DNA from: Candidatus Omnitrophota bacterium
GTDB lineage: Bacteria > Omnitrophota > Gorgyraeia > Tantalellales > Tantalellaceae
Assembly: GCA_049642065.1 (NCBI GenBank)
Contig: JBAROK010000092.1
Span: 17,613 to 81,612, forward strand
Length of the DNA: 64,000 nt
Reading direction: 5' to 3'
Below the pieces are notes generated by a model. It was not told the origin of the DNA. It did not search any database and worked only from the letters and a program-made list of their open reading frames with translations. This document shows positions 6,665-59,059 of the stretch, piece after piece. The first letter of the stretch is position 1, and each line of letters begins with the position of its first letter. The position numbers and the translations under genes were made by a program.

Positions 6665-7165
6665 GTGGCATACGCGCATAGGCTTAAAATTCAGAACGAT
6701 ATAAACACGGACTATATAATCTCCGGCAGATATAAGTTCAAGATCCAAGACGAAAAAGAGCTCGCCAAATATATTTTCGCGGATGTTGAAGATGAGTTTC
6801 ATAAGCGGGTAAAATCCGGAGATTTCTTGGTAGCGGGAGAGAATTTTGGATGCGGATCGTCTAGGGAACAAGCTCCGGTGGCTTTGAAAGCGAGCGGGTT
6901 GCGTGCAGTGATCGCTAAAAGTTTTGCGAGGATTTTCTATCGCAATGCGTTTAACGTGGGACTTTGTCTTGTAGAATGTGAGACGAATTATATAGATGAT
7001 ATGGACGAACTTGAGCTTGACCTGGATAGGAACATGTTAAAGAACGTCTCTAAAGGCGTTAATATCGAGATAAAACCCATACCGAAGGTAATGCGTAAAC
7101 TGCTTGAGATGGGCGGGGTAGTCGAATATTTCAGGCAGCACGGTGATTTTGACGAAATGATCTGA
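6665..7165 (+). CDS. leuD: aconitase-family dehydratase small subunit (LeuD-type)
   Basis: 166 aa. [17 protein letters not shown] swivel-domain motif. Confidence 0.8.
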
Positions 7166-7173
7166 TAACTCTT

Positions 7174-7818
7174 ATGGATATAGTTGATCTGGGGATAGTC
7201 GGGTACGAAGAAGCCTTAAGTGTGCAGCAGGATCTTTTACGTAAGAGGATCGCTGGCAGTGTGCCGGATACTCTGGTGATGCTAGAACATAAGCCGGTAG
7301 TTACGCTTGGCCGTATCGATGACGGTAGAGGTATAATCGACCGCTCTTTTTTTGAGGATAATAATATTCCTGTGATTTCTACGGGTAGAGGCGGCCAGAT
7401 AACCTGCCATATGCCCGGACAGCTGGTCATATATCCGATTGTCGATCTTGCTGAAAAGAAAAAAGATGTTTCTTTCTATATTGATCTACTAGAGGCGGCG
7501 GCTTCAGCGGCTTTGGAACAGCTTGGTGTTTCCACGCTTTGCAATGAAGAAAGGCGAGGAGTATGGGCCGGAGGCCGTAAGATCGCCTTTATCGGCATAG
7601 CGGTAAAACGGTGGGTTACTTATCACGGCATAGCGATCAATATAAATAACGATCTGGAAAGTTTTATGCATATGCACCCCTGCGGGGAGAGTGATATACG
7701 CGTGACTAGCGCCAGAGAACAGCTGGGGCGAGGTCTTGAGATGGCAGAAGTAAAAAGAGTGTTCGCAGATAGGTTAGAAAATAGTCTAACGAGCGAATAC
7801 GCAATGCAGTCAGTATAA
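7174..7818 (+). CDS. lipB: lipoyl(octanoyl) transferase LipB
   Basis: LEHKPVVTLGR...GRGGQITCHMPGQLVIYP core. 214 aa. Confidence 0.85.
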   Translation: MDIVDLGIVGYEEALSVQQDLLRKRIAGSVPDTLVMLEHKPVVTLGRIDDGRGIIDRSFFEDNNIPVISTGRGGQITCHMPGQLVIYPIVDLAEKKKDVSFYIDLLEAAASAALEQLGVSTLCNEERRGVWAGGRKIAFIGIAVKRWVTYHGIAININNDLESFMHMHPCGESDIRVTSAREQLGRGLEMAEVKRVFADRLENSLTSEYAMQSV

Positions 7819-8054
7819 TGGAATTAAAGCTTACAGGGATATCCCAGGATGCTAAGGAAGCGACCATTACGCTTTGGCACAAAAGTGAAAGCGAAAGAGT
7901 GGTCAAAGGTCGGGATCTTGTTGAAATAGTTACAGATAAGGCAACGTTTGATGTCCCCGCACCGTGCGATGGGATATTAACAAAAATCAAGAAAGAACCT
8001 GGCGAAACGGTCACGACCGACGAGGTCATCGCTGTAATACTCGAGGATGAGTAG
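7818..8054 (+). CDS. stand-alone lipoyl/biotinyl-attachment domain protein (78 aa)
   Basis: Single hybrid-barrel domain with acceptor-lysine motif EIVTDKATFDVPAPCDGIL. Its start ATG overlaps the lipB stop (TAATG). Confidence 0.65.
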   Translation: MELKLTGISQDAKEATITLWHKSESERVVKGRDLVEIVTDKATFDVPAPCDGILTKIKKEPGETVTTDEVIAVILEDE

Positions 8055-8096
8055 CGTGCCCAAGTTACGCCGACAACAGGTCAATGCAGATCTGAT

Positions 8097-9212
8097 ATGA
8101 AGAAAAAGATCCTAATCTTTTACATATCGGAATTTTCCGGTCATTTTCACGCTGCTAGCGCGATAGAAAAAGCGTTGCTGCAGCTGCAAAAAGATCTTGA
8201 TATCGATAAGATAAACGCTCTTGATTATACTAATCCTATACTCGGCAAGATCATCAACAAAGCTTATCTGGAAGTTATCAAGAAAAAACCCGAACTTTGG
8301 GGCAATATTTACGACCACCCAAAAGTCGTTAAAAAGACCAAGAAAGCCAGAGAAGCCCTCCATAAACATAACATGTCCAAGATAAAACGGCTTATCGAAA
8401 AACATTCGCCATATGCGATTTTTTGCACACAGGCGATGCCGTGTGGAATGGTAGCCGATTATAAACGTTCAGGCGGGAAGGATGTAAAATTGATTGGGGT
8501 ATTAACAGACCATGCGCCGCATTCTTTTTGGATATTTGACGAAGTGGATTTCTATGCAGTGCCTTCAGAAGAGACCGGCAAGGTTCTTGAACAAAAAGGC
8601 ATTCCGCCATCGAAGATAAAGGTTTCCGGTATCCCTGTGGATCCTAAGTTTCGCAAGAGCCATGACGTGGAAAAAATAAATAAAGAATACGGGTTAAATA
8701 AGGATGATCCTACGATATTGATAATGGGAGGCACTCAAGGGTTGGGTGAGGTGGAACTTATCGTCAAGGCACTTTTGAAAGACAAAGAACATAACTATCA
8801 GCTTTTGATAGTTGCCGGTTCTAACAAGAAACTCTTTACGCGCCTTAAAAAGCTTGGCCGGAAAAAAGGCGGAGAAAACATGCGCGTTCTTTCATTTGTG
8901 GAGAACATTGACGAGCTTATGGAGATCTCCGATATAGTAGTGGGTAAAGCCGGGGGTATGACCACAGCTGAAGCTGCAGTGAAAGAGACCCCTATGATTA
9001 TCGTAAGTCCAATACCGGGACACGAACGCAGGAACACCGATTATATGATCGAAAAGGGCGTGGCAGTAGAGGTAGAGGATTTCGTCGAGGTGCCCAGAAA
9101 GATAAACGAACTGTTTGATTCAGAGGGCATGCTGGAGGGTATGAGAAAAAACGCGCGAAAAATTTCCAAACCCAAAAGCGCCTTGGATATCGCAAAACTG
9201 GTGCTAGATTAA
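8097..9212 (+). CDS. MGDG-synthase-like / GT28-family diacylglycerol glycosyltransferase
   Basis: N-terminal ILIFYISEFSGHFHAASAIEKAL resembles MGDG_synth/UgtP N-domains. C-terminal GT-B half with GGTQGLG. Confidence 0.65.
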   Translation: MKKKILIFYISEFSGHFHAASAIEKALLQLQKDLDIDKINALDYTNPILGKIINKAYLEVIKKKPELWGNIYDHPKVVKKTKKAREALHKHNMSKIKRLIEKHSPYAIFCTQAMPCGMVADYKRSGGKDVKLIGVLTDHAPHSFWIFDEVDFYAVPSEETGKVLEQKGIPPSKIKVSGIPVDPKFRKSHDVEKINKEYGLNKDDPTILIMGGTQGLGEVELIVKALLKDKEHNYQLLIVAGSNKKLFTRLKKLGRKKGGENMRVLSFVENIDELMEISDIVVGKAGGMTTAEAAVKETPMIIVSPIPGHERRNTDYMIEKGVAVEVEDFVEVPRKINELFDSEGMLEGMRKNARKISKPKSALDIAKLVLD

Positions 9213-33811: not shown

Positions 33812-34711
33812 ATGAAACTTACCGTAATAGGATCAACAGCACTGGACAGTATAGAGACGCCTTTCGGCAAGAAGAAAGATATACTGGGTGGGTCGGCTAC
33901 TTACTCTTCTATAAGCGCGTCTTTTTTTGCCCCGGTTAACCTTATAAGCGTTGTAGGCGCGGATTTTCCCCAGAAATACATCCGTCTTTTCGAGAAAAGA
34001 AGTATAGACACTACGGGCCTTGAGCAGAAAAAAGGTAAAACCTTTCGCTGGAAGGCTAAGTATCATTATGACATGAGCTATGCCGAGACTTTGGACACGA
34101 AACTCGGTGTTTTCAATGGTTTCAGGCCGGTTATACCATCCAACGTGAGCCCTAAGACAAATCTTCTTTTAGCGAATATAGATCCTGAACTTCAAAGTTA
34201 TATCTTTCATCAGATAAAGCCTACGGGTCTTGTTGCGTGCGATACCATGAACCATTGGATATCAACCAGTAAGAAGGCGCTGGTGAGATTACTTAAGAAA
34301 GTGGATCTATTTTTGTTGAATGATGCTGAAGCGCGTCAGCTTTCAGGGGAGACTAATCTTTTGGAAGCGGCAAGATTTATATCCTCAAAGGGTGCGAAGA
34401 TGACGGTGATCAAGAAGGGGGAGCATGGTGCACTTTTCTTTTCCAAGGGGTTGCGTTTTATGGTTCCCGCATACCTTCTTGAGACGATAAAAGACCCGAC
34501 TGGGGCGGGGGATACGTTTGCCGGCGGTATGCTGGGATATCTGTCAAAGTACCCGAAGCTTACCGACAAGGTCTTGAGGCGGGCTCTTGTCTATGGCAGT
34601 ATAATGGCTTCTTTTGCAGTGGAAAGATTTTCTGCAGACGGGCTATTGAAAACAAAACCTGCGGATATAAAGAAGCGGGTTAAACACTTTGAAAAGTTAA
34701 CTAAATTCTAG
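33812..34711 (+). CDS. PfkB/ribokinase-family carbohydrate or small-molecule kinase
   Basis: N-terminal GG motif (ILGGSATY). C-terminal anion-hole DPTGAGDTFAGGM. Confidence 0.75.
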   Translation: MKLTVIGSTALDSIETPFGKKKDILGGSATYSSISASFFAPVNLISVVGADFPQKYIRLFEKRSIDTTGLEQKKGKTFRWKAKYHYDMSYAETLDTKLGVFNGFRPVIPSNVSPKTNLLLANIDPELQSYIFHQIKPTGLVACDTMNHWISTSKKALVRLLKKVDLFLLNDAEARQLSGETNLLEAARFISSKGAKMTVIKKGEHGALFFSKGLRFMVPAYLLETIKDPTGAGDTFAGGMLGYLSKYPKLTDKVLRRALVYGSIMASFAVERFSADGLLKTKPADIKKRVKHFEKLTKF

Positions 34712-34784
34712 CGAGTGTAGTACAATGGCAGTACACCAGCTTCCCAAGCTGGCTACGGGGGTTCGATTCCCCTCACTCGCTCCA
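34711..34784 (+). tRNA. tRNA-Gly (anticodon CCC), CCA-encoded
   Basis: Cloverleaf read by eye: acceptor GCGAGTG/CACTCGC, D-stem GTAC, anticodon stem CCAGC/GCTGG with loop TTCCCAA, T-arm GGGGG-TTCGATT-CCCCT, discriminator T, then CCA. Confidence 0.85.
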
Positions 34785-34793
34785 TCTTATTAA

Positions 34794-34824
34794 AAGGGCG
34801 ACCATAAATGGTTGCCCTTTTTTT
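34794..34824 (+). terminator. intrinsic terminator after tRNA-Gly
   Basis: 11-bp stem AAGGGCGACCA/TGGTTGCCCTT with loop TAAA, followed by a T-run. Confidence 0.7.
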
Positions 34825-34885
34825 GTCTTGCAGCTTGTAGTGATAAATGTCCCGATGTATACTCATTCTTAATAAGGAGGATACT

Positions 34886-35062
34886 ATGTCCGAAAATATC
34901 TGGGTAAAGTGGTGCGGGGAGTGTTTTATGTGCAGGTTCACGCGAAATTGCGAAATAAATTCAATCTGGTGTAAAATAGCCAGGGCAATGCAGAGGATTT
35001 GTCCTATTTGTATCATGGCGAATAGGGCTCTCAAAAAGAACTTTCAGGAACGAGAAAGATGA
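34886..35062 (+). CDS. small cysteine-rich protein (58 aa; CxxC...C...C...C...CxxC)
   Basis: Strong RBS aaggagg 7 nt upstream of the ATG. Seven Cys include two CxxC pairs (zinc-ribbon-like). Confidence 0.45.
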   Translation: MSENIWVKWCGECFMCRFTRNCEINSIWCKIARAMQRICPICIMANRALKKNFQERER

Positions 35063-35240: not shown

Positions 35241-35546
35241 ATGAAGATTTTATTGGTTTTGCTAATGGCTATGGCGCTTGTGTGCGCGTATGCTGCTCCC
35301 GGTATGGCAGGAAAAGCTGACAATCCGGTAACCAACGTGGTTACAGGTTCGGTAAATACCGTGGGTAAGGCCGCAGAAGGGACGGTCAAGACAGTAGCCG
35401 CTCCTGTGGAGGCGCTGGGTGACTCCATGAAAGGCGAGGGCACCCCAGACAAAATAATAACGGGTCCTGTTGAAAAAGGTGGCGAAACAGTGTATGATGC
35501 TACGGTAAATACAGGCAAGACCGTCACTGGCCAAAAAGTGGAATGA
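35241..35546 (+). CDS. small secreted Gly/Thr/Val-rich repeat protein, paralog 1
   Basis: RBS ggaaggagg. Signal peptide. Two internal ~30-aa repeats (V.TG.VNT.GK..EGT.KT). Its paralog follows directly downstream. Confidence 0.6.
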   Translation: MKILLVLLMAMALVCAYAAPGMAGKADNPVTNVVTGSVNTVGKAAEGTVKTVAAPVEALGDSMKGEGTPDKIITGPVEKGGETVYDATVNTGKTVTGQKVE

Positions 35547-35600: not shown

Positions 35601-35915
35601 ATGAAGAGGGCAGTTGTACTTGTTCTAGTCATAGCCTTAGTATGTGCTTACGCGATGCCCGCAGTCGCACAAGAAAAGGCGAAAGACCCGGTAGAGTATT
35701 CGGGTAACGTGGTCACCGGAACGGTGAACACGGTTGGCAAAGCCACCGAAGGCACCGCTAAGACCGCAGTAAGCCCGATAGTGGCTTTCTGGAACGCCAT
35801 AACCGGCAAAGGTAAACCAGAAAATGTAGTTACCGATCCGGTTAACGAAGGCGGCAAAACGGTATACAATGCCAGCGTAAATACTGGCAAAACGGTTACC
35901 GGACAGAAACAATAA
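35601..35915 (+). CDS. small secreted Gly/Thr/Val-rich repeat protein, paralog 2
   Basis: Same architecture as paralog 1, including the C-terminal VNTGKTVTGQK. Confidence 0.6.
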   Translation: MKRAVVLVLVIALVCAYAMPAVAQEKAKDPVEYSGNVVTGTVNTVGKATEGTAKTAVSPIVAFWNAITGKGKPENVVTDPVNEGGKTVYNASVNTGKTVTGQKQ

Positions 35916-35941: not shown

Positions 35942-35975
35942 CCGGGAATGCAACAGCTGCATTCCCGGTTTTTTT
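35942..35975 (+). terminator. intrinsic terminator
   Basis: Stem CCGGGAATGCA/TGCATTCCCGG followed by TTTTTTT. Confidence 0.8.
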
Positions 35976-36012
35976 ATGGCAACTTTTAATCATAAGGGGT
36001 ATACTACAAGAG

Positions 36013-36633
36013 ATGAAAAAAACATGGTTTAAAATATTACTGTCAGCAGGTATATTGTGCGTGTTATTCGCTCATACCGCTCATGCTATCTCCTGGCATC
36101 GCAGTTTGAACTCAGCTCTTAGAGCATCTAACAAGCAAGGGAAGCCGGTTCTTGTTGATTTCTATACTGAATGGTGTGGCTGGTGTAAGAAGATGGATAA
36201 AGATACGTATTCCCATGCTGGTGTAGAAAAAGAGGCTGTTAATTTTATTTGTGTGAAGGTAGATGGAGATAAAAACAGAGACCTTGTTCGTAAATATAAT
36301 ATAAAAGCTTATCCGACAACACTTTTTCTCAACGGTAAAGGGGTAGCAATAGACAGGATCCGGGGATATCTTCCTCCGGACCAGTTCCTTCCCAAGATGA
36401 AATCCATAGCGACTAGGTATAAACCTTCTGTGCAAACAAAGAAGGGCAAGACGGCGCCATCAGGATTTAACCTTTCCGGGATAATCTTTTCACAGGATGA
36501 TCCTAAAGCTATAGTCAATAACAATATCGTGGGTATTGGAGATACTGTTGGCGGCGCCAAAGTCGTCGCTATCACCCAATACGGTGTCATTCTATCCGGC
36601 CAGGACGGTGAGATAGTTCTTAAGCTGGAGTAG
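36013..36633 (+). CDS. secreted thioredoxin-fold protein (CGWC) fused to a GspB/T2SSB-like C-terminal domain
   Basis: Signal peptide. VLVDFYTEWCGWCKKMD thioredoxin active site. The C-terminal 50 aa (SGIIFSQDDPKAIVNNNIVGIGDTVGGAKVVAI...) aligns with the C-terminus of the GspB-like protein at 56204-56860. Confidence 0.65.
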   Translation: MKKTWFKILLSAGILCVLFAHTAHAISWHRSLNSALRASNKQGKPVLVDFYTEWCGWCKKMDKDTYSHAGVEKEAVNFICVKVDGDKNRDLVRKYNIKAYPTTLFLNGKGVAIDRIRGYLPPDQFLPKMKSIATRYKPSVQTKKGKTAPSGFNLSGIIFSQDDPKAIVNNNIVGIGDTVGGAKVVAITQYGVILSGQDGEIVLKLE

Positions 36634-36698: not shown

Positions 36699-36947
36699 AT
36701 GAAAGATATAAACGAAATTATTCCTGTCGTTATACGAGAGCTTGCAGTTTTAACGATGTTTGTCGTTTTTCTGTATGTAACGCTTCTACTGGGGATAGTG
36801 CTTTTCAAGCTCACGGGACTGGAACTTACTCGAGAACACGCCAAAACGCTTCAATTATACGTATCAGTTGGATTTTTTATCCTCTACGCTTTATGTCAGC
36901 TCAAAAGGCTCATTCAATGGGTTATGAAGGGAAGAATCCTTTGGTGA
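36699..36947 (+). CDS. small 2-TM membrane protein, paralog 1
   Basis: 82 aa with two hydrophobic helices. A paralog lies 40 nt downstream. Confidence 0.45.
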   Translation: MKDINEIIPVVIRELAVLTMFVVFLYVTLLLGIVLFKLTGLELTREHAKTLQLYVSVGFFILYALCQLKRLIQWVMKGRILW

Positions 36948-36989: not shown

Positions 36990-37223
36990 ATGATAAAAGA
37001 CGCCATTAGGTTTATTGCCAAGGAAATCATTGTCCTGGCGGGCTTTATCGCAGCATTATATGCGGTTCTTTTTCTGATATCGTTGTGGCTCAGGTCAAGC
37101 GGGATAGAACTTGTGCTGAATGATGCCGTATCGCTTGAAATAACTATTTCATGGATATTTGTTGTCCTGTACATACTTTATTTGATCGGCAGATTTATTG
37201 TATGGAATGTCAAGGGGGGATAA
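36990..37223 (+). CDS. small 2-TM membrane protein, paralog 2
   Basis: 77 aa with the same topology, ending ...RFIVWNVKGG (paralog 1 ends ...IQWVMKGRILW). Confidence 0.45.
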   Translation: MIKDAIRFIAKEIIVLAGFIAALYAVLFLISLWLRSSGIELVLNDAVSLEITISWIFVVLYILYLIGRFIVWNVKGG

Positions 37224-37225
37224 TA

Positions 37226-37905
37226 TGAAAAAGGTGTTATGTATTGTTCTTTCTCTCAGTGTGTTATTTTGTCTAAGCGTCGATACGACAGAAGCTGTAG
37301 GGAGTAAATGGACGAAGCTGGTCGAAACCTCCGGGGATGTTCTGTCGGAGATACAACATATGCCGGACCAGAGCGTGCCGGAAGATCTTATGAAAAAATG
37401 TGCTGCTATTGCGATATTCCCTAATACGATCTCGGCAGGCCTTGGGATTGGAGGTAAATACGGGCAGGGGATAATTATGGTCCGTAAAAAACGCGGTAAG
37501 TGGTCACCGCCGGCGATCTTTACGATAGCCGGTGGAAGTATAGGGTTCCAGATAGGAGGGCAAGCTTCTGACATAGTGCTGCTCATAATGACCGAACGAA
37601 GCGTAGAAGGTATATTGAAAGGCAAATTCAAACTGGGTGCTGACGCTGCTGTCGCAGCCGGCCCTGTTGGCCGTGATGCTCAAGCTGCTACTGACGCTCA
37701 TCTTGGTGGGATATTGTCGTATTCAAGGAGCCGGGGTTTGTTCGCAGGGATAAAGTTGGAAGGAGATGTTATCACCGAGCACTGGGAAGGGAATGAAGAG
37801 CTTTACGGAAAAAAGCTCTCGGCTGAAGAGATATTAATAGAGAATAAGGCGAAGATGCCGAAATCCGCGAATGGTGTCTTAGGAATGCTGAAAAAATATA
37901 AATAG
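37226..37905 (+). CDS. SYLF (DUF500, Ysc84-like) lipid-binding domain protein, secreted
   Basis: Signal peptide. CAAIAIFPNTISAGLGIGGKYGQG...GAD core typical of SYLF. Confidence 0.65.
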
Positions 37906-56203: not shown

Positions 56204-56860
56204 TCAGCGCATGCGTATTTCGTAATCTGTATCATGAGATGATACTATTACAGTGGACGGGTTTATCTTGCGGATCGTATAACCGGTCACGACGTCACCT
56301 TTGGTTACCAGAGCTCCGTTAATAATCGCTTGGGGATTTGTAGGCGAATACATGATACCGCTTACGATTGGAAGGTCCGCGGGGGCGATAGTTCCGTACG
56401 TTGTCTGGGTTTTCGGAACCGGCGCAGAAGGTTGTTTGACCGTTTCGGGTTCCAGGATAGCGGCGGGAACGGTCTCTTTAGGTGCCGGCATAGGCTTGTA
56501 AACAGCAGGAGCGGGTCTGGCTTGCTTAACTTGTTTCTCTGAAGCCGTTAGAAGGGGACGGATAAGCAAGACGGAACCGATAAGCACGATACACAAGAGG
56601 ACTATGCTGCCAGCTAAGATATGCGGGAACAGAGCCTTTTTATCCGGAGCTGCTTTAGCAGGTTTCGCTGCTAAAGGTGCAGCTATTTGCGGTTCGGTTT
56701 CGTTCGTCGGAGGGACAACTTCCTGCAGTTCTTGAGCTTTTTCTGGTGGCGCAAATTTGGCAGCCTCTTCAGCCCGAACTCTTTTCAGCTCTTCCGCTCT
56801 TCTCAATCTTACGGCGCGTTCTTTTTGCGCTTTTTGTAATGCTTTGGCTATAATGCTCAT
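56204..56860 (-). CDS. GspB/ExeB-like protein (Pro-rich linker, TM, C-terminal T2SSB-type domain)
   Basis: N-terminus MSIIAKALQKAQKERA is typical of GspB. Central TM segment, Pro/Ala-rich region, and C-terminal SGIMYSPTNPQAIINGALVTKGDVVTGYTIRKI. Confidence 0.6.
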   Translation of the reverse strand: MSIIAKALQKAQKERAVRLRRAEELKRVRAEEAAKFAPPEKAQELQEVVPPTNETEPQIAAPLAAKPAKAAPDKKALFPHILAGSIVLLCIVLIGSVLLIRPLLTASEKQVKQARPAPAVYKPMPAPKETVPAAILEPETVKQPSAPVPKTQTTYGTIAPADLPIVSGIMYSPTNPQAIINGALVTKGDVVTGYTIRKINPSTVIVSSHDTDYEIRMR

Positions 56861-57678
56861 ACGGTGATACTATATTGTCCTTCTATTTCTTCAATACTTT
56901 TTTCGACTATTTCAGGTTCAATAAGACGGGTTTCCCGCACAAATCCCATTAGAAGCGCCTTATCGCATAAGAGGTTAATCAGGCGTGGGATACCGTCTGA
57001 ATACGAATAGATAAGGTCACATGATTCGGGATAAAAGTTAATTATCTGTGAAGCCCCTGCGATTGCAAGACGATGGTGTATGTATCCATCCAGTTCGTTT
57101 CTTTCAAGCGCCCTTACGTGGAACCTTACGCTTATTCGCTGGCGAAGCTGTACCAGGGCGGGGGAGTTCAGTTTATCTCGCAGCTCCGGCTGGCCTACAA
57201 GTATTATCTGCAGAAGTTTTTCTTTGTCGGTTTCCAGGTTCGACAGCATACGGATAGTTTCGAGAGTGGATTTTCTCAGGTTCTGAGCCTCGTCGATTAT
57301 AAGAACCGTGTTATTGCCTCGTGAAAGCTGAGCCAGAAGGAATTCGTTCAGTTGTTTCAGGAAAGCGACTTTGTTGCGCCTTTCAGGTGTTATACCAAAA
57401 TCCGTGACAATAGCTTCAAGAAGCTGTGTTTCAGGCAAACTTGAATTGAAAATAAGGGAGGTCTTAGTATGTTCGTCCAGTTGCTTGATCAGCGCGCGGC
57501 ATAGGGTTGTTTTTCCCGCACCGATCTCGCCGGTTATTTCAATGAACCCTTTCCGGGCATGAATCCCATACAACAGGTGATCTAAAGCTTCTTTATGGGT
57601 ATGACTAAGATATAGAAAATCAGGATCACTGGTGACGTTAAAAGGGTTTTCCTTAAGACCATAAAAATCGAGATACAT
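56857..57678 (-). CDS. ExeA/GspA-like AAA ATPase (AAA_22 type; PEP-CTERM-locus / MshM-like)
   Basis: N-terminal FYGLKENPF, Walker A GEIGAGKTT, Walker B LIIDEAQ. Stop overlaps the gspB-like start. Confidence 0.7.
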   Translation of the reverse strand: MYLDFYGLKENPFNVTSDPDFLYLSHTHKEALDHLLYGIHARKGFIEITGEIGAGKTTLCRALIKQLDEHTKTSLIFNSSLPETQLLEAIVTDFGITPERRNKVAFLKQLNEFLLAQLSRGNNTVLIIDEAQNLRKSTLETIRMLSNLETDKEKLLQIILVGQPELRDKLNSPALVQLRQRISVRFHVRALERNELDGYIHHRLAIAGASQIINFYPESCDLIYSYSDGIPRLINLLCDKALLMGFVRETRLIEPEIVEKSIEEIEGQYSITV

Positions 57679-57832: not shown

Positions 57833-58201
57833 ATGATGTGGGACGGAATAAACCAGAGAAGATTTCCCCGGGTAAGTTACAGGTGCCTTATACTTGTTTC
57901 TAAAGACGGTCGGGAAGAGGTCATAGAGACCTTCACCGAGAATATCGGAGCGGGAGGGATTTGTGTTGTCCTGGACAGGGAGTTCAAACTATTTGAGAAC
58001 GTGGCAATGGAGATCTTTCTGGGGGAGGAAAAGGAGCCCATTAATTGCCAGGGGACGATCGTATGGGTCGTGAAACGGCATCCAACGACTGATGCAGAGA
58101 AAGTCGAGTACGATACTGGTGTTGAGTTTAGGGATATTTCGGACGAGGACATAAAAAAGGTGACCAAGCTCGTCGAAGATATATTAAAGGCCAAAACTTG
58201 A
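57833..58201 (+). CDS. single-domain PilZ protein (c-di-GMP receptor-like), copy 1
   Basis: QRRFPRV (RxxxR) and ENIGAGGICVV (D/NxSxxG-like) PilZ motifs. 122 aa. Confidence 0.65.
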   Translation: MMWDGINQRRFPRVSYRCLILVSKDGREEVIETFTENIGAGGICVVLDREFKLFENVAMEIFLGEEKEPINCQGTIVWVVKRHPTTDAEKVEYDTGVEFRDISDEDIKKVTKLVEDILKAKT

Positions 58202-58702: not shown

Positions 58703-59059
58703 ATGACAGGCGAGAAAAGAAGGTATATGCGGTTTAACGTGCTGCTTGATGCTATATGTCGTAAGAACGGTAACCAGAAGAAATTAAAGGTAAATAACTT
58801 CAGTAAAGAAGGGGTCGGCATACTTAGCAAGGAATCATTCTCCGAAGGGGAGAATGTTGAAATAGAGTTGATGATACCCGGCGATAATGTCCCTGTGTTG
58901 CTTCAGGGAGAGATAGCTTGGTCAAGTGATCCGATAGTGGATAATATTCATCATAAAAGCGGAATGAAGTTTCAGAAGGTCAGTAACGAGGACAGAAGCA
59001 GGATACTTGAATACATTTATCATAAGTGGATGATGCCTGCCAGTGCTGACGCAAAATAA
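58703..59059 (+). CDS. single-domain PilZ protein, copy 2
   Basis: KRRYMRFNV and NFSKEGVGI motifs. 118 aa. Confidence 0.6.
   Translation: MTGEKRRYMRFNVLLDAICRKNGNQKKLKVNNFSKEGVGILSKESFSEGENVEIELMIPGDNVPVLLQGEIAWSSDPIVDNIHHKSGMKFQKVSNEDRSRILEYIYHKWMMPASADAK

Follow-up and report, generated by a model that had tools for sequence, protein, structure and literature searches.

A thioredoxin with a C-terminal HR domain in Candidatus Omnitrophota, a candidate redox enzyme for secretin or pilus assembly sites

A 64,000-nucleotide stretch of contig JBAROK010000092.1 (assembly GCA_049642065.1, Candidatus Omnitrophota bacterium), hereafter the window, carries the gene of a thioredoxin that ends in an HR domain, the domain class of GspB, GspC and PilP. 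The complete gene, named Trx-HR here, lies at 36013-36633 on the plus strand and codes for 206 amino acids plus a stop codon, exactly the position and length given in the original prediction; the exact protein is also present on 6 public contigs. It represents a new domain architecture composed of known parts, so far restricted to metagenome-assembled genomes (MAGs) of Omnitrophota and the PVC (Planctomycetes-Verrucomicrobia-Chlamydiae) group. An alignment of 22 full-length homologues and an AlphaFold2 model, with a mean predicted local distance difference test score (pLDDT) of 87 for the whole protein, divide the sequence into a signal peptide, a thioredoxin domain, a linker and a C-terminal module. 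The putative signal peptide, residues 1-25 (MKKTWFKILLSAGILCVLFAHTAHA, 36013-36087), was read from the sequence and has an AxA cleavage motif (AHA end); the model places a helix at residues 3-20, and in the 22 homologues A25 is invariant and the hydrophobic stretch is kept. Pfam, NCBIfam, Foldseek and the alignment delimit a thioredoxin-fold domain at residues 26-136 (36088-36420; pLDDT 93-97) with the active-site motif CGWC at residues 55-58 (36175-36186) in a WCGWC context. A flexible, lysine-rich linker follows at residues 137-150 (36421-36462), with pLDDT values below 50 at residues 142-149; across the family it measures about 14 to 60 amino acids and is poorly conserved. Residues 151-206 (36463-36630) form the HR domain, a six-stranded beta-sandwich of the GspB/GspC/PilP class according to profile and fold evidence, and the last HR strand is the end of the protein, without a C-terminal extension. 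We propose, with evenly balanced confidence, that Trx-HR is a periplasmic redox enzyme tethered by its HR domain to the N0 domain of a secretin at a pilus or secretion channel.

The original prediction had described the C-terminal ~50 amino acids as a GspB/T2SSB-type domain. This description was borne out and can be made more precise: by its sequence profile and its modelled fold, the module of about 56 amino acids is an HR domain. Comparison with Pfam T2SSB (PF16537), the family that corresponds to the HR domain (PMC12274547), had been suggested as a check and gave a divided answer. The Trx-HR protein itself matched on residues 152-198 with 19.1 bits, below the gathering score of 28.4, but the profile and fold evidence at the level of the family is solid. 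T2SSB on its own detected 12 of the 22 family members at E < 0.01 (best 2.8e-6). An exhaustive HMMER search with a profile of the module against 1.84 billion cluster representatives matched 19,393 proteins at E <= 1e-3, of which 1,693 reached E <= 1e-10. Among the best 147 profile matches, Pfam identified T2SSB in 103 (best 2.7e-19), CdsD_C in 39, T2SSC in 15 and thioredoxin domains in 13. A word-indexed homology search with the 58-amino-acid module profile returned 4 short proteins only. The best sequence match of the profile in the PDB was the HR domain of OutC/GspC (2LNV, E 0.003). Modelled alone, the module had six strands and a pLDDT of 94 (86-91 within the full-length model), arranged as the beta-sandwich of two antiparallel three-stranded sheets that characterizes the HR class. 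The top five Foldseek matches of the lone module were all HR domains, namely GspC (3OSS_C), GspB (4WFW), PulC (6HCG), LspC (7OIO) and PilP (2Y4Y), with template modelling (TM) scores of 0.65-0.81, and each later PDB hit stayed below 0.45. The scores were 0.81 for 3OSS_C, 0.78 for 4WFW from D. dadantii (root-mean-square deviation 1.7 A over 56 columns) and 0.69 for 2Y4Y. Near-invariant among the 22 homologues are G156, A166, N169, G176 and D177. The profile match is significant, and the sandwich is of the HR class rather than a generic one.

The solved HR structure of OutB/GspB is built from two sheets of three strands each, with a fold as in GspC-HR and PilP; it binds the N0 domain of OutD in a 1:1 ratio at about 10 uM, a partner common to GspC-HR and PilP, and photo-cross-linking of OutB suggested that one N0 can contact two HR domains (Zhang et al. 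2022, PMC9239104). The original prediction had the domain contact either the secretin or the peptidoglycan. The former agrees with the N0 binding of the GspB HR domain, the latter needs correction: OutB is attached to peptidoglycan by a separate C-terminal extension and not by its HR domain (PMC12274547), and Trx-HR lacks such an extension. GspB/OutB of D. dadantii and ExeB of Aeromonas are scaffolding proteins of type II secretion systems (T2SS) with the same HR sandwich as the Trx-HR module; T2SSB is the best sequence-family match of the module, and in GspB as well as in Trx-HR the HR domain comes after a disordered, variable linker. GspB, however, is bitopic in the inner membrane, has its N-terminus in the cytoplasm, lacks an enzyme domain and is encoded next to gspA or the gene of a pilotin, whereas Trx-HR has a cleavable-looking signal peptide, a thioredoxin domain and a genomically unlinked gene. 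An assignment as GspB proper was rejected, the N-terminus being a signal peptide plus thioredoxin instead of a cytoplasmic segment with one transmembrane helix. GspC (transmembrane segment, HR and PDZ; 3OSS, 6HCG) and PilP (lipoprotein with HR; 2Y4Y) share the HR fold, but they are structural links from the inner-membrane platform to the secretin, whereas Trx-HR has a catalytic redox domain and no membrane anchor.

The thioredoxin part, residues ~28-127, was matched by the Pfam families Thioredoxin_2 (3e-18), Thioredoxin (4e-16), Thioredoxin_7 (2.5e-15) and Thioredox_DsbH (7e-12), of which the first three each exceeded the gathering score. In the 22 homologues D49, which is buried in the model, C55, C58 and C80 are invariant and the cis-Pro loop Y100-P101 is conserved; C55, C58, C80, G156 and A166 are invariant in this alignment. 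The CGWC motif is a hallmark of the whole secreted Trx_7 family in many phyla, and it is kept in 23 of the 24 full-length HR-bearing homologues as well as in most relatives that consist of thioredoxin only. The VDFYTEWCGWCK motif of Trx-HR resembles VDFWAEWCGPCK of E. coli thioredoxin. Foldseek with the whole model listed DsbD-gamma first (1VRS_D, 2FWG), DsbH of Chlamydia next (2JU5) and then ordinary thioredoxins, and the best local NCBIfam matches were the C-terminal domains of TsoB and DsbD. No NCBIfam equivalog cutoff was reached by this part: DsbH (NF043050) was rejected with 37.8 bits against a cutoff of 190, and DsbD (PRK00293) with 63.1 against 330 bits, only the profile positions 458-572 of the gamma domain being matched. 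A DsbA-class oxidase was rejected as well, residues 26-136 being modelled as a plain thioredoxin fold of about 110 amino acids without the helical insertion, and no DsbA structure was among the top 50 fold matches. Because DsbD-gamma and DsbH are the nearest fold class and the DsbA-type insert is absent, the most likely activity of the enzyme, as modelled, is to reduce or isomerise disulfides and not to introduce them de novo. With its WCGWC motif, buried aspartate and cis-Pro loop it would act as a soluble periplasmic thiol-disulfide oxidoreductase of the thioredoxin/DsbD-gamma/DsbH class.

DsbD-gamma (1VRS, 2FWG) and DsbH (2JU5) are the nearest folds and sequence families to residues 26-136, and all are periplasmic thioredoxin folds without the DsbA insert. 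Trx-HR differs from DsbD in the active site, CGWC instead of the CVAC of DsbD-gamma, and in lacking the DsbD membrane domain. Neither DsbD-gamma nor DsbH has an HR tail. DsbH stems, like the host of Trx-HR, from a PVC-group lineage, and is a soluble, reducing periplasmic oxidoreductase with structural likeness to thioredoxin and DsbD-gamma (PMC5193440). The same thioredoxin subfamily has been joined to other modules for protein-protein interaction, in NCBIfam NF041199 ('Trx7/PDZ domain-containing (seleno)protein') and in relatives with TPR, for example P0027 with a TPR match; Trx-HR differs from these in that the fused partner is an HR domain. In Neisseria, membrane-anchored DsbA lipoproteins are needed for type IV pilus function. 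They are alike in concept, as spatially restricted periplasmic oxidoreductases tied to pilus or secretin biogenesis, but they are DsbA-class oxidases with a lipid anchor and have neither a thioredoxin-class domain nor a secretin-binding protein domain as tether.

The 24 HR-bearing members of the family were the top hits of a homology search, and all those with an organism name belong to Candidatus Omnitrophota. In a collection of one genome per species (GTDB), the canonical Trx-HR occurred in 8 species and a variant with a C-terminal domain of four transmembrane segments in 6. The fusion is thus present in at least 14 species, all of them Omnitrophota MAGs or MAGs labelled 'uncultured Planctomycetia' (PVC). 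Relatives with the same CGWC site and no HR domain are widespread in many phyla, and several genomes with Trx-HR also keep such a thioredoxin-only paralogue. One could take this, together with the lack of any context that links the fusion to a machine, as a sign that Trx-HR serves the periplasm as a general thioredoxin and that domain shuffling left it with a neutral or vestigial tail without a role in targeting. The tail is, however, kept down to about 40% overall identity in the at least 14 species, its core residues (G156, A166, N169, G176, D177) are retained in a module modelled at pLDDT 94, and the HR domain is also kept in the second, membrane-anchored architecture; purifying selection is therefore indicated, and a neutral tail appears very improbable.

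The membrane-anchored architecture defines a sub-clade (L014-L018 and L022, e.g., L015 9992-11260) that combines thioredoxin, a divergent HR domain (FVYNGY...AQVNY) and a C-terminal domain of ~150 amino acids with the four transmembrane segments. This domain contains one conserved membrane cysteine and had a DUF5684 match in L016. A DUF748/AsmA-like gene is always found 3' of the gene in this sub-clade, and also after the L012 gene, which lacks the transmembrane domain. In L014 (4790-6676), L018 (9563-11239) and L022 (9638-11236) an ArfB-type RF-1/GGQ domain runs in frame and without a stop codon into the hydrophobic N-terminus of the membrane-anchored protein (RF-1 on the L018 reading frame, Pfam 1.8e-22), and in L015, L016, L017 and L043 a separate ArfB gene stands directly beside it. 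Whether real or produced by the choice of start codon, the run-on is a possible fusion.

A second copy of the module is located in the window in the open reading frame (ORF) 56204-56860 on the minus strand (218 amino acids), as the original prediction had noticed. The C-termini of the two proteins share 24 of 69 residues (35%, BLASTP E 2e-10), and a hidden Markov model (HMM) built from the C-termini of the 22 homologues found this ORF with E 1.3e-12 in the six-frame translation of the whole window. The next hit had an E value of 0.07, and the module is therefore present exactly twice in the window. The second HR copy covers residues ~166-218 (56207-56365, minus strand; Pfam, BLASTP and HMM), with C-terminal, sub-threshold Pfam matches to T2SSB (23.0 bits, gathering score 28.4) and CdsD_C. 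It is preceded by an MSII..AL.KA N-terminus, one transmembrane segment and a Pro/Ala-rich linker; this N-terminus and membrane layout is common to most of the profile hits. The gene overlaps by 4 nt with that of a GspA/ExeA-family AAA_22 ATPase of 273 amino acids (56857-57678, minus strand; Pfam AAA_22 1e-28). At this size the ATPase has no periplasmic domain, unlike classical GspA with its periplasmic peptidoglycan-binding region; the Alteromonas archetype ATPase is likewise without it (PMC9239104). The protein passed the NCBIfam model TIGR03015, 'XrtA/PEP-CTERM system-associated ATPase', with 327.5 bits (cutoff 324.5). Its divergent neighbours on the plus strand are a PilZ protein (57833-58201), the 'exosortase system-associated protein' TIGR04073 (58274-58612; 107.6 versus 50 bits) and a second PilZ protein (58703-59059). 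The arrangement of ATPase and PilZ/TIGR04073 genes recurs in L099 (7372-10162). No exosortase gene was seen near this block. The label 'GspB-like' is consequently right at the level of the domain, but the gene pair does not belong to a T2SS operon. Given these exosortase-type neighbours, the HR partners in the phylum need not all be secretins.

The genomic habits of related HR modules were surveyed in a metagenome scan with the module alignment, in which gene contexts were scored by purpose-built HMMs. The scan yielded 46 loci with modules 35-59% identical to that of the window; its pattern stemmed from five sequences, one of them a PilP-position protein, and may modestly favour such relatives. 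Two loci carried a Trx-HR gene. At 17 loci the HR gene was immediately upstream of a secretin gene or overlapped it, mostly after PilM/N and T2SSF genes, i.e., in the position of PilP or GspC, and 4 loci had the HR gene after PilM/N with no secretin detected. In 9 loci it was directly downstream of a GspA-like AAA_22 ATPase gene; the other 14 contigs were too short, or nothing was found on them. The closest HR relatives are accordingly found most often beside a secretin (17 of 44 loci without thioredoxin). P0083, whose module is 49% identical to that of the window, is encoded in L095 with pilMN-type genes on one side and the gene of an N0-containing secretin on the other, P0072 in a T2SSK/PilN operon, and in L128 an HR gene, a secretin gene and an ATPase gene stand in a row. 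Fusions of the module to a trypsin-like protease (P0163, Trypsin_2 1.5e-29), to PilO (P0189) and to a DUF975 membrane domain (P0186) were found, and P0070 has three tandem HR copies in one protein. Judged by these fusions and tandem repeats, the HR module behaves as a portable adaptor would. Compared with HR modules next to secretins, in PilMN operons or paired with ATPases, the Trx-HR module had about the same mean identity to each group (34-37%), and monophyly of the thioredoxin-linked HR modules was left unresolved by a neighbour-joining tree built on 58 columns. Genes with HR domains only were also observed next to genes related to cyclic di-GMP: in L094 (7664-8555) the gene of P0071, a protein with two HR domains, is overlapped at its start by a PilZ gene, and in L119 (4760-6974) a GGDEF diguanylate cyclase gene directly follows the HR gene of a pilMN-type operon.

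Since the closest HR relatives are encoded immediately upstream of secretins in pilMN-type operons, the suggestion of the original prediction that the thioredoxin is targeted to a secretin or pilus assembly site has gained strength. The exported oxidoreductase would be tethered by its disordered, Lys-rich linker of 14-60 residues to the HR domain, which would serve as an address tag and dock on the ring of N0 domains where the secretin opens to the periplasm. Candidate target secretins are PilQ of type-4a pili, RcpA of the Tad system and a GspD-like channel. Type-4a pili are reported for almost every Omnitrophota genome, with Tad/RcpA secretin complexes also common (PMC10066038). Redox activity would in this way be concentrated where pilins, secreted proteins or the periplasmic domains of secretins pass or assemble.

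Several observations weigh against a secretin as docking site. No secretin, pilus, T2SS, pilotin or GspA gene was found beside Trx-HR in about 20 loci, and the neighbours of Trx-HR vary between clades. The 64-kb window contains no secretin gene, and a search for secretin and PilMN homologues in 1.46 Mb including the window retrieved only the query locus L095 and a weak PilMN match in L036. The GspB-like paralogue of the window is accompanied by the exosortase/PEP-CTERM-linked ATPase and small protein and not by a T2SS, the T2SSB score of Trx-HR itself is sub-threshold, and the survey of HR loci may lean towards PilP-like relatives as noted. The L095 secretin (6828-8321), encoded downstream of P0083, has a lipobox, LLGC, and no cysteine other than the one in it; the protein thus seems to be a lipoprotein secretin, and with a single cysteine it cannot itself be a disulfide substrate. 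The nearest relatives that have a name belong to Planctomycetota. As to the source of electrons, CcdA, DsbD, DsbB and VKOR were all absent among the Trx-HR neighbours examined by Pfam.

An ArsP_1 permease (PF03773) with the membrane motif TPFCSCS was observed next to or near Trx-HR in L015 (8696-9613), L014 (4140-5057), L017 (1448-2365), L004 (8693-9226) and L002 (14149-15213). It was rejected as a consistent partner, being nearby in three lineages and absent from the window; that it could supply or remove reducing equivalents is speculative.

The HR domain might instead dock the thioredoxin onto an envelope assembly other than a secretin, such as the complex of ATPase and GspB-like protein (56204-57678), a periplasm-spanning protein of the AsmA/DUF748 type or another ring-forming periplasmic domain. 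Pairing of the window's HR paralogue with a TIGR03015 ATPase next to TIGR04073 and PilZ genes, repeated in L099, agrees with such a role, as do the 9 of 44 related HR loci that are ATPase-paired with no secretin within reach, the DUF748/AsmA-like gene invariably 3' of the fusion gene in the FVYNGY sub-clade, and the related Pfam families CdsD_C and Y4YQ_C, which show the fold in other machines. Yet all HR domains with an experimentally defined partner, those of GspB, GspC and PilP, bind secretin N0 (PMC9239104). The GspA/ExeA-GspB pairs are themselves secretin assembly factors, L128 unites HR gene, secretin and ATPase, and among the closest HR relatives no context is more frequent than that of the 17 secretin-adjacent loci. 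We consider docking to a non-secretin assembly unlikely.

A periplasm-wide function would result if the HR domain mediated self-association or client binding and turned Trx-HR into a dimeric isomerase or chaperone similar to DsbC and DsbG, which pair a non-catalytic dimerisation domain with a thioredoxin domain. The cross-linking results on OutB, suggesting that one N0 may touch two HR domains, are compatible with this, and so are the location of the Trx-HR gene, unlinked to any machine like a housekeeping Dsb gene, and the thioredoxin-only paralogue retained in the same genomes. The linker of DsbC, however, is a rigid helix that builds a defined cleft, whereas that of Trx-HR is disordered, Lys-rich and ranges from about 14 to 60 amino acids. 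We know of no HR domain that acts as a dimerisation or chaperone module, and the tandem-HR proteins and the fusions with PilO, protease and membrane domains fit an adaptor role better. An isomerase of this kind is hence rather improbable.

In the window the Trx-HR gene is probably monocistronic, because a strong terminator separates the upstream gene from its start. This intrinsic terminator (35942-35975, plus strand) ends the upstream genes for small secreted proteins with an 11-bp perfect stem, a 5-nt loop and seven U's. It was spotted by eye and confirmed by RNA folding; a simple terminator scan did not detect it. In the fold the stem is lengthened by A-U pairs, with -27.3 kcal/mol and a z-score of -7.8, and none of 200 shuffled sequences folded as well. 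Just 5' of the start codon a consensus scan found a promoter-like site, ATGGCA-18-TATACT (35976-36005, plus strand), with 9 of 12 matching positions, which is weak evidence. Terminator and promoter-like site together suggest that Trx-HR is its own transcription unit.

Upstream of Trx-HR on the plus strand, 35241-35546 and 35601-35915 encode paralogous small secreted proteins of 101 and 104 amino acids with repeated G-x-V-x-T-G / NTVGKA motifs and no cysteine in the mature part; neither Pfam nor NCBIfam had a matching family, and they are kept at this place only in close relatives (L001, L006). Downstream, likewise on the plus strand, 36699-36947 and 36990-37223 encode paralogous small membrane proteins of 82 and 77 amino acids without a family match, followed at 37198-37905 by a secreted SYLF/Ysc84-domain protein (Pfam 6e-36); the synteny of the small membrane protein genes with the Ysc84 gene is limited to close relatives. 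The same holds for the entire order of PfkB, two small secreted proteins, Trx-HR, small transmembrane proteins and Ysc84. Farther upstream, a tRNA-Gly(CCC) gene (34711-34784, plus strand) precedes a terminator-like hairpin (34792-34821), and a minus-strand ORF of 93 amino acids (34753-35034) that overlaps the tRNA gene is probably spurious.

The combination of thioredoxin and HR domain, an architecture that the original prediction had not recognised, was not found described in the literature searched. In the source data the proteins are named 'thioredoxin family protein', and precomputed Pfam annotation flags both domains in 2 of the 24 family members only. Standard annotation thus misses the HR domain in most members, and the architecture is therefore largely invisible in domain-architecture databases. 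To our knowledge, the only role so far known for HR domains is that of structural connectors, in GspB, GspC and PilP, which link inner-membrane platforms to secretins. A redox enzyme in conserved fusion with such a domain would mean that the HR-N0 interaction is also able to bring catalysis to secretins, and the HR-protease fusion points toward enzyme delivery as well. We raise tentatively, and with more doubt than confidence, that Omnitrophota and PVC bacteria related to them use HR as an address tag of general purpose in the periplasm, recruiting thioredoxin, trypsin-like protease and membrane-domain proteins to the N0 rings of secretins. The delivery of enzymes to secretins by HR domains is a new and testable idea, for which the evidence is purely computational and the genomic context gives no direct support. 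If true, Trx-HR would be the first case in which a catalytic redox module has its place at the entrance of a channel for pili or secretion, reducing or reshuffling the disulfides of pilins, giant adhesins or other cargo on the way in. The finding touches on the question of how anaerobic, ultra-small and possibly predatory bacteria that depend heavily on type IV and Tad pili deal with pilins and secreted proteins that contain disulfides.

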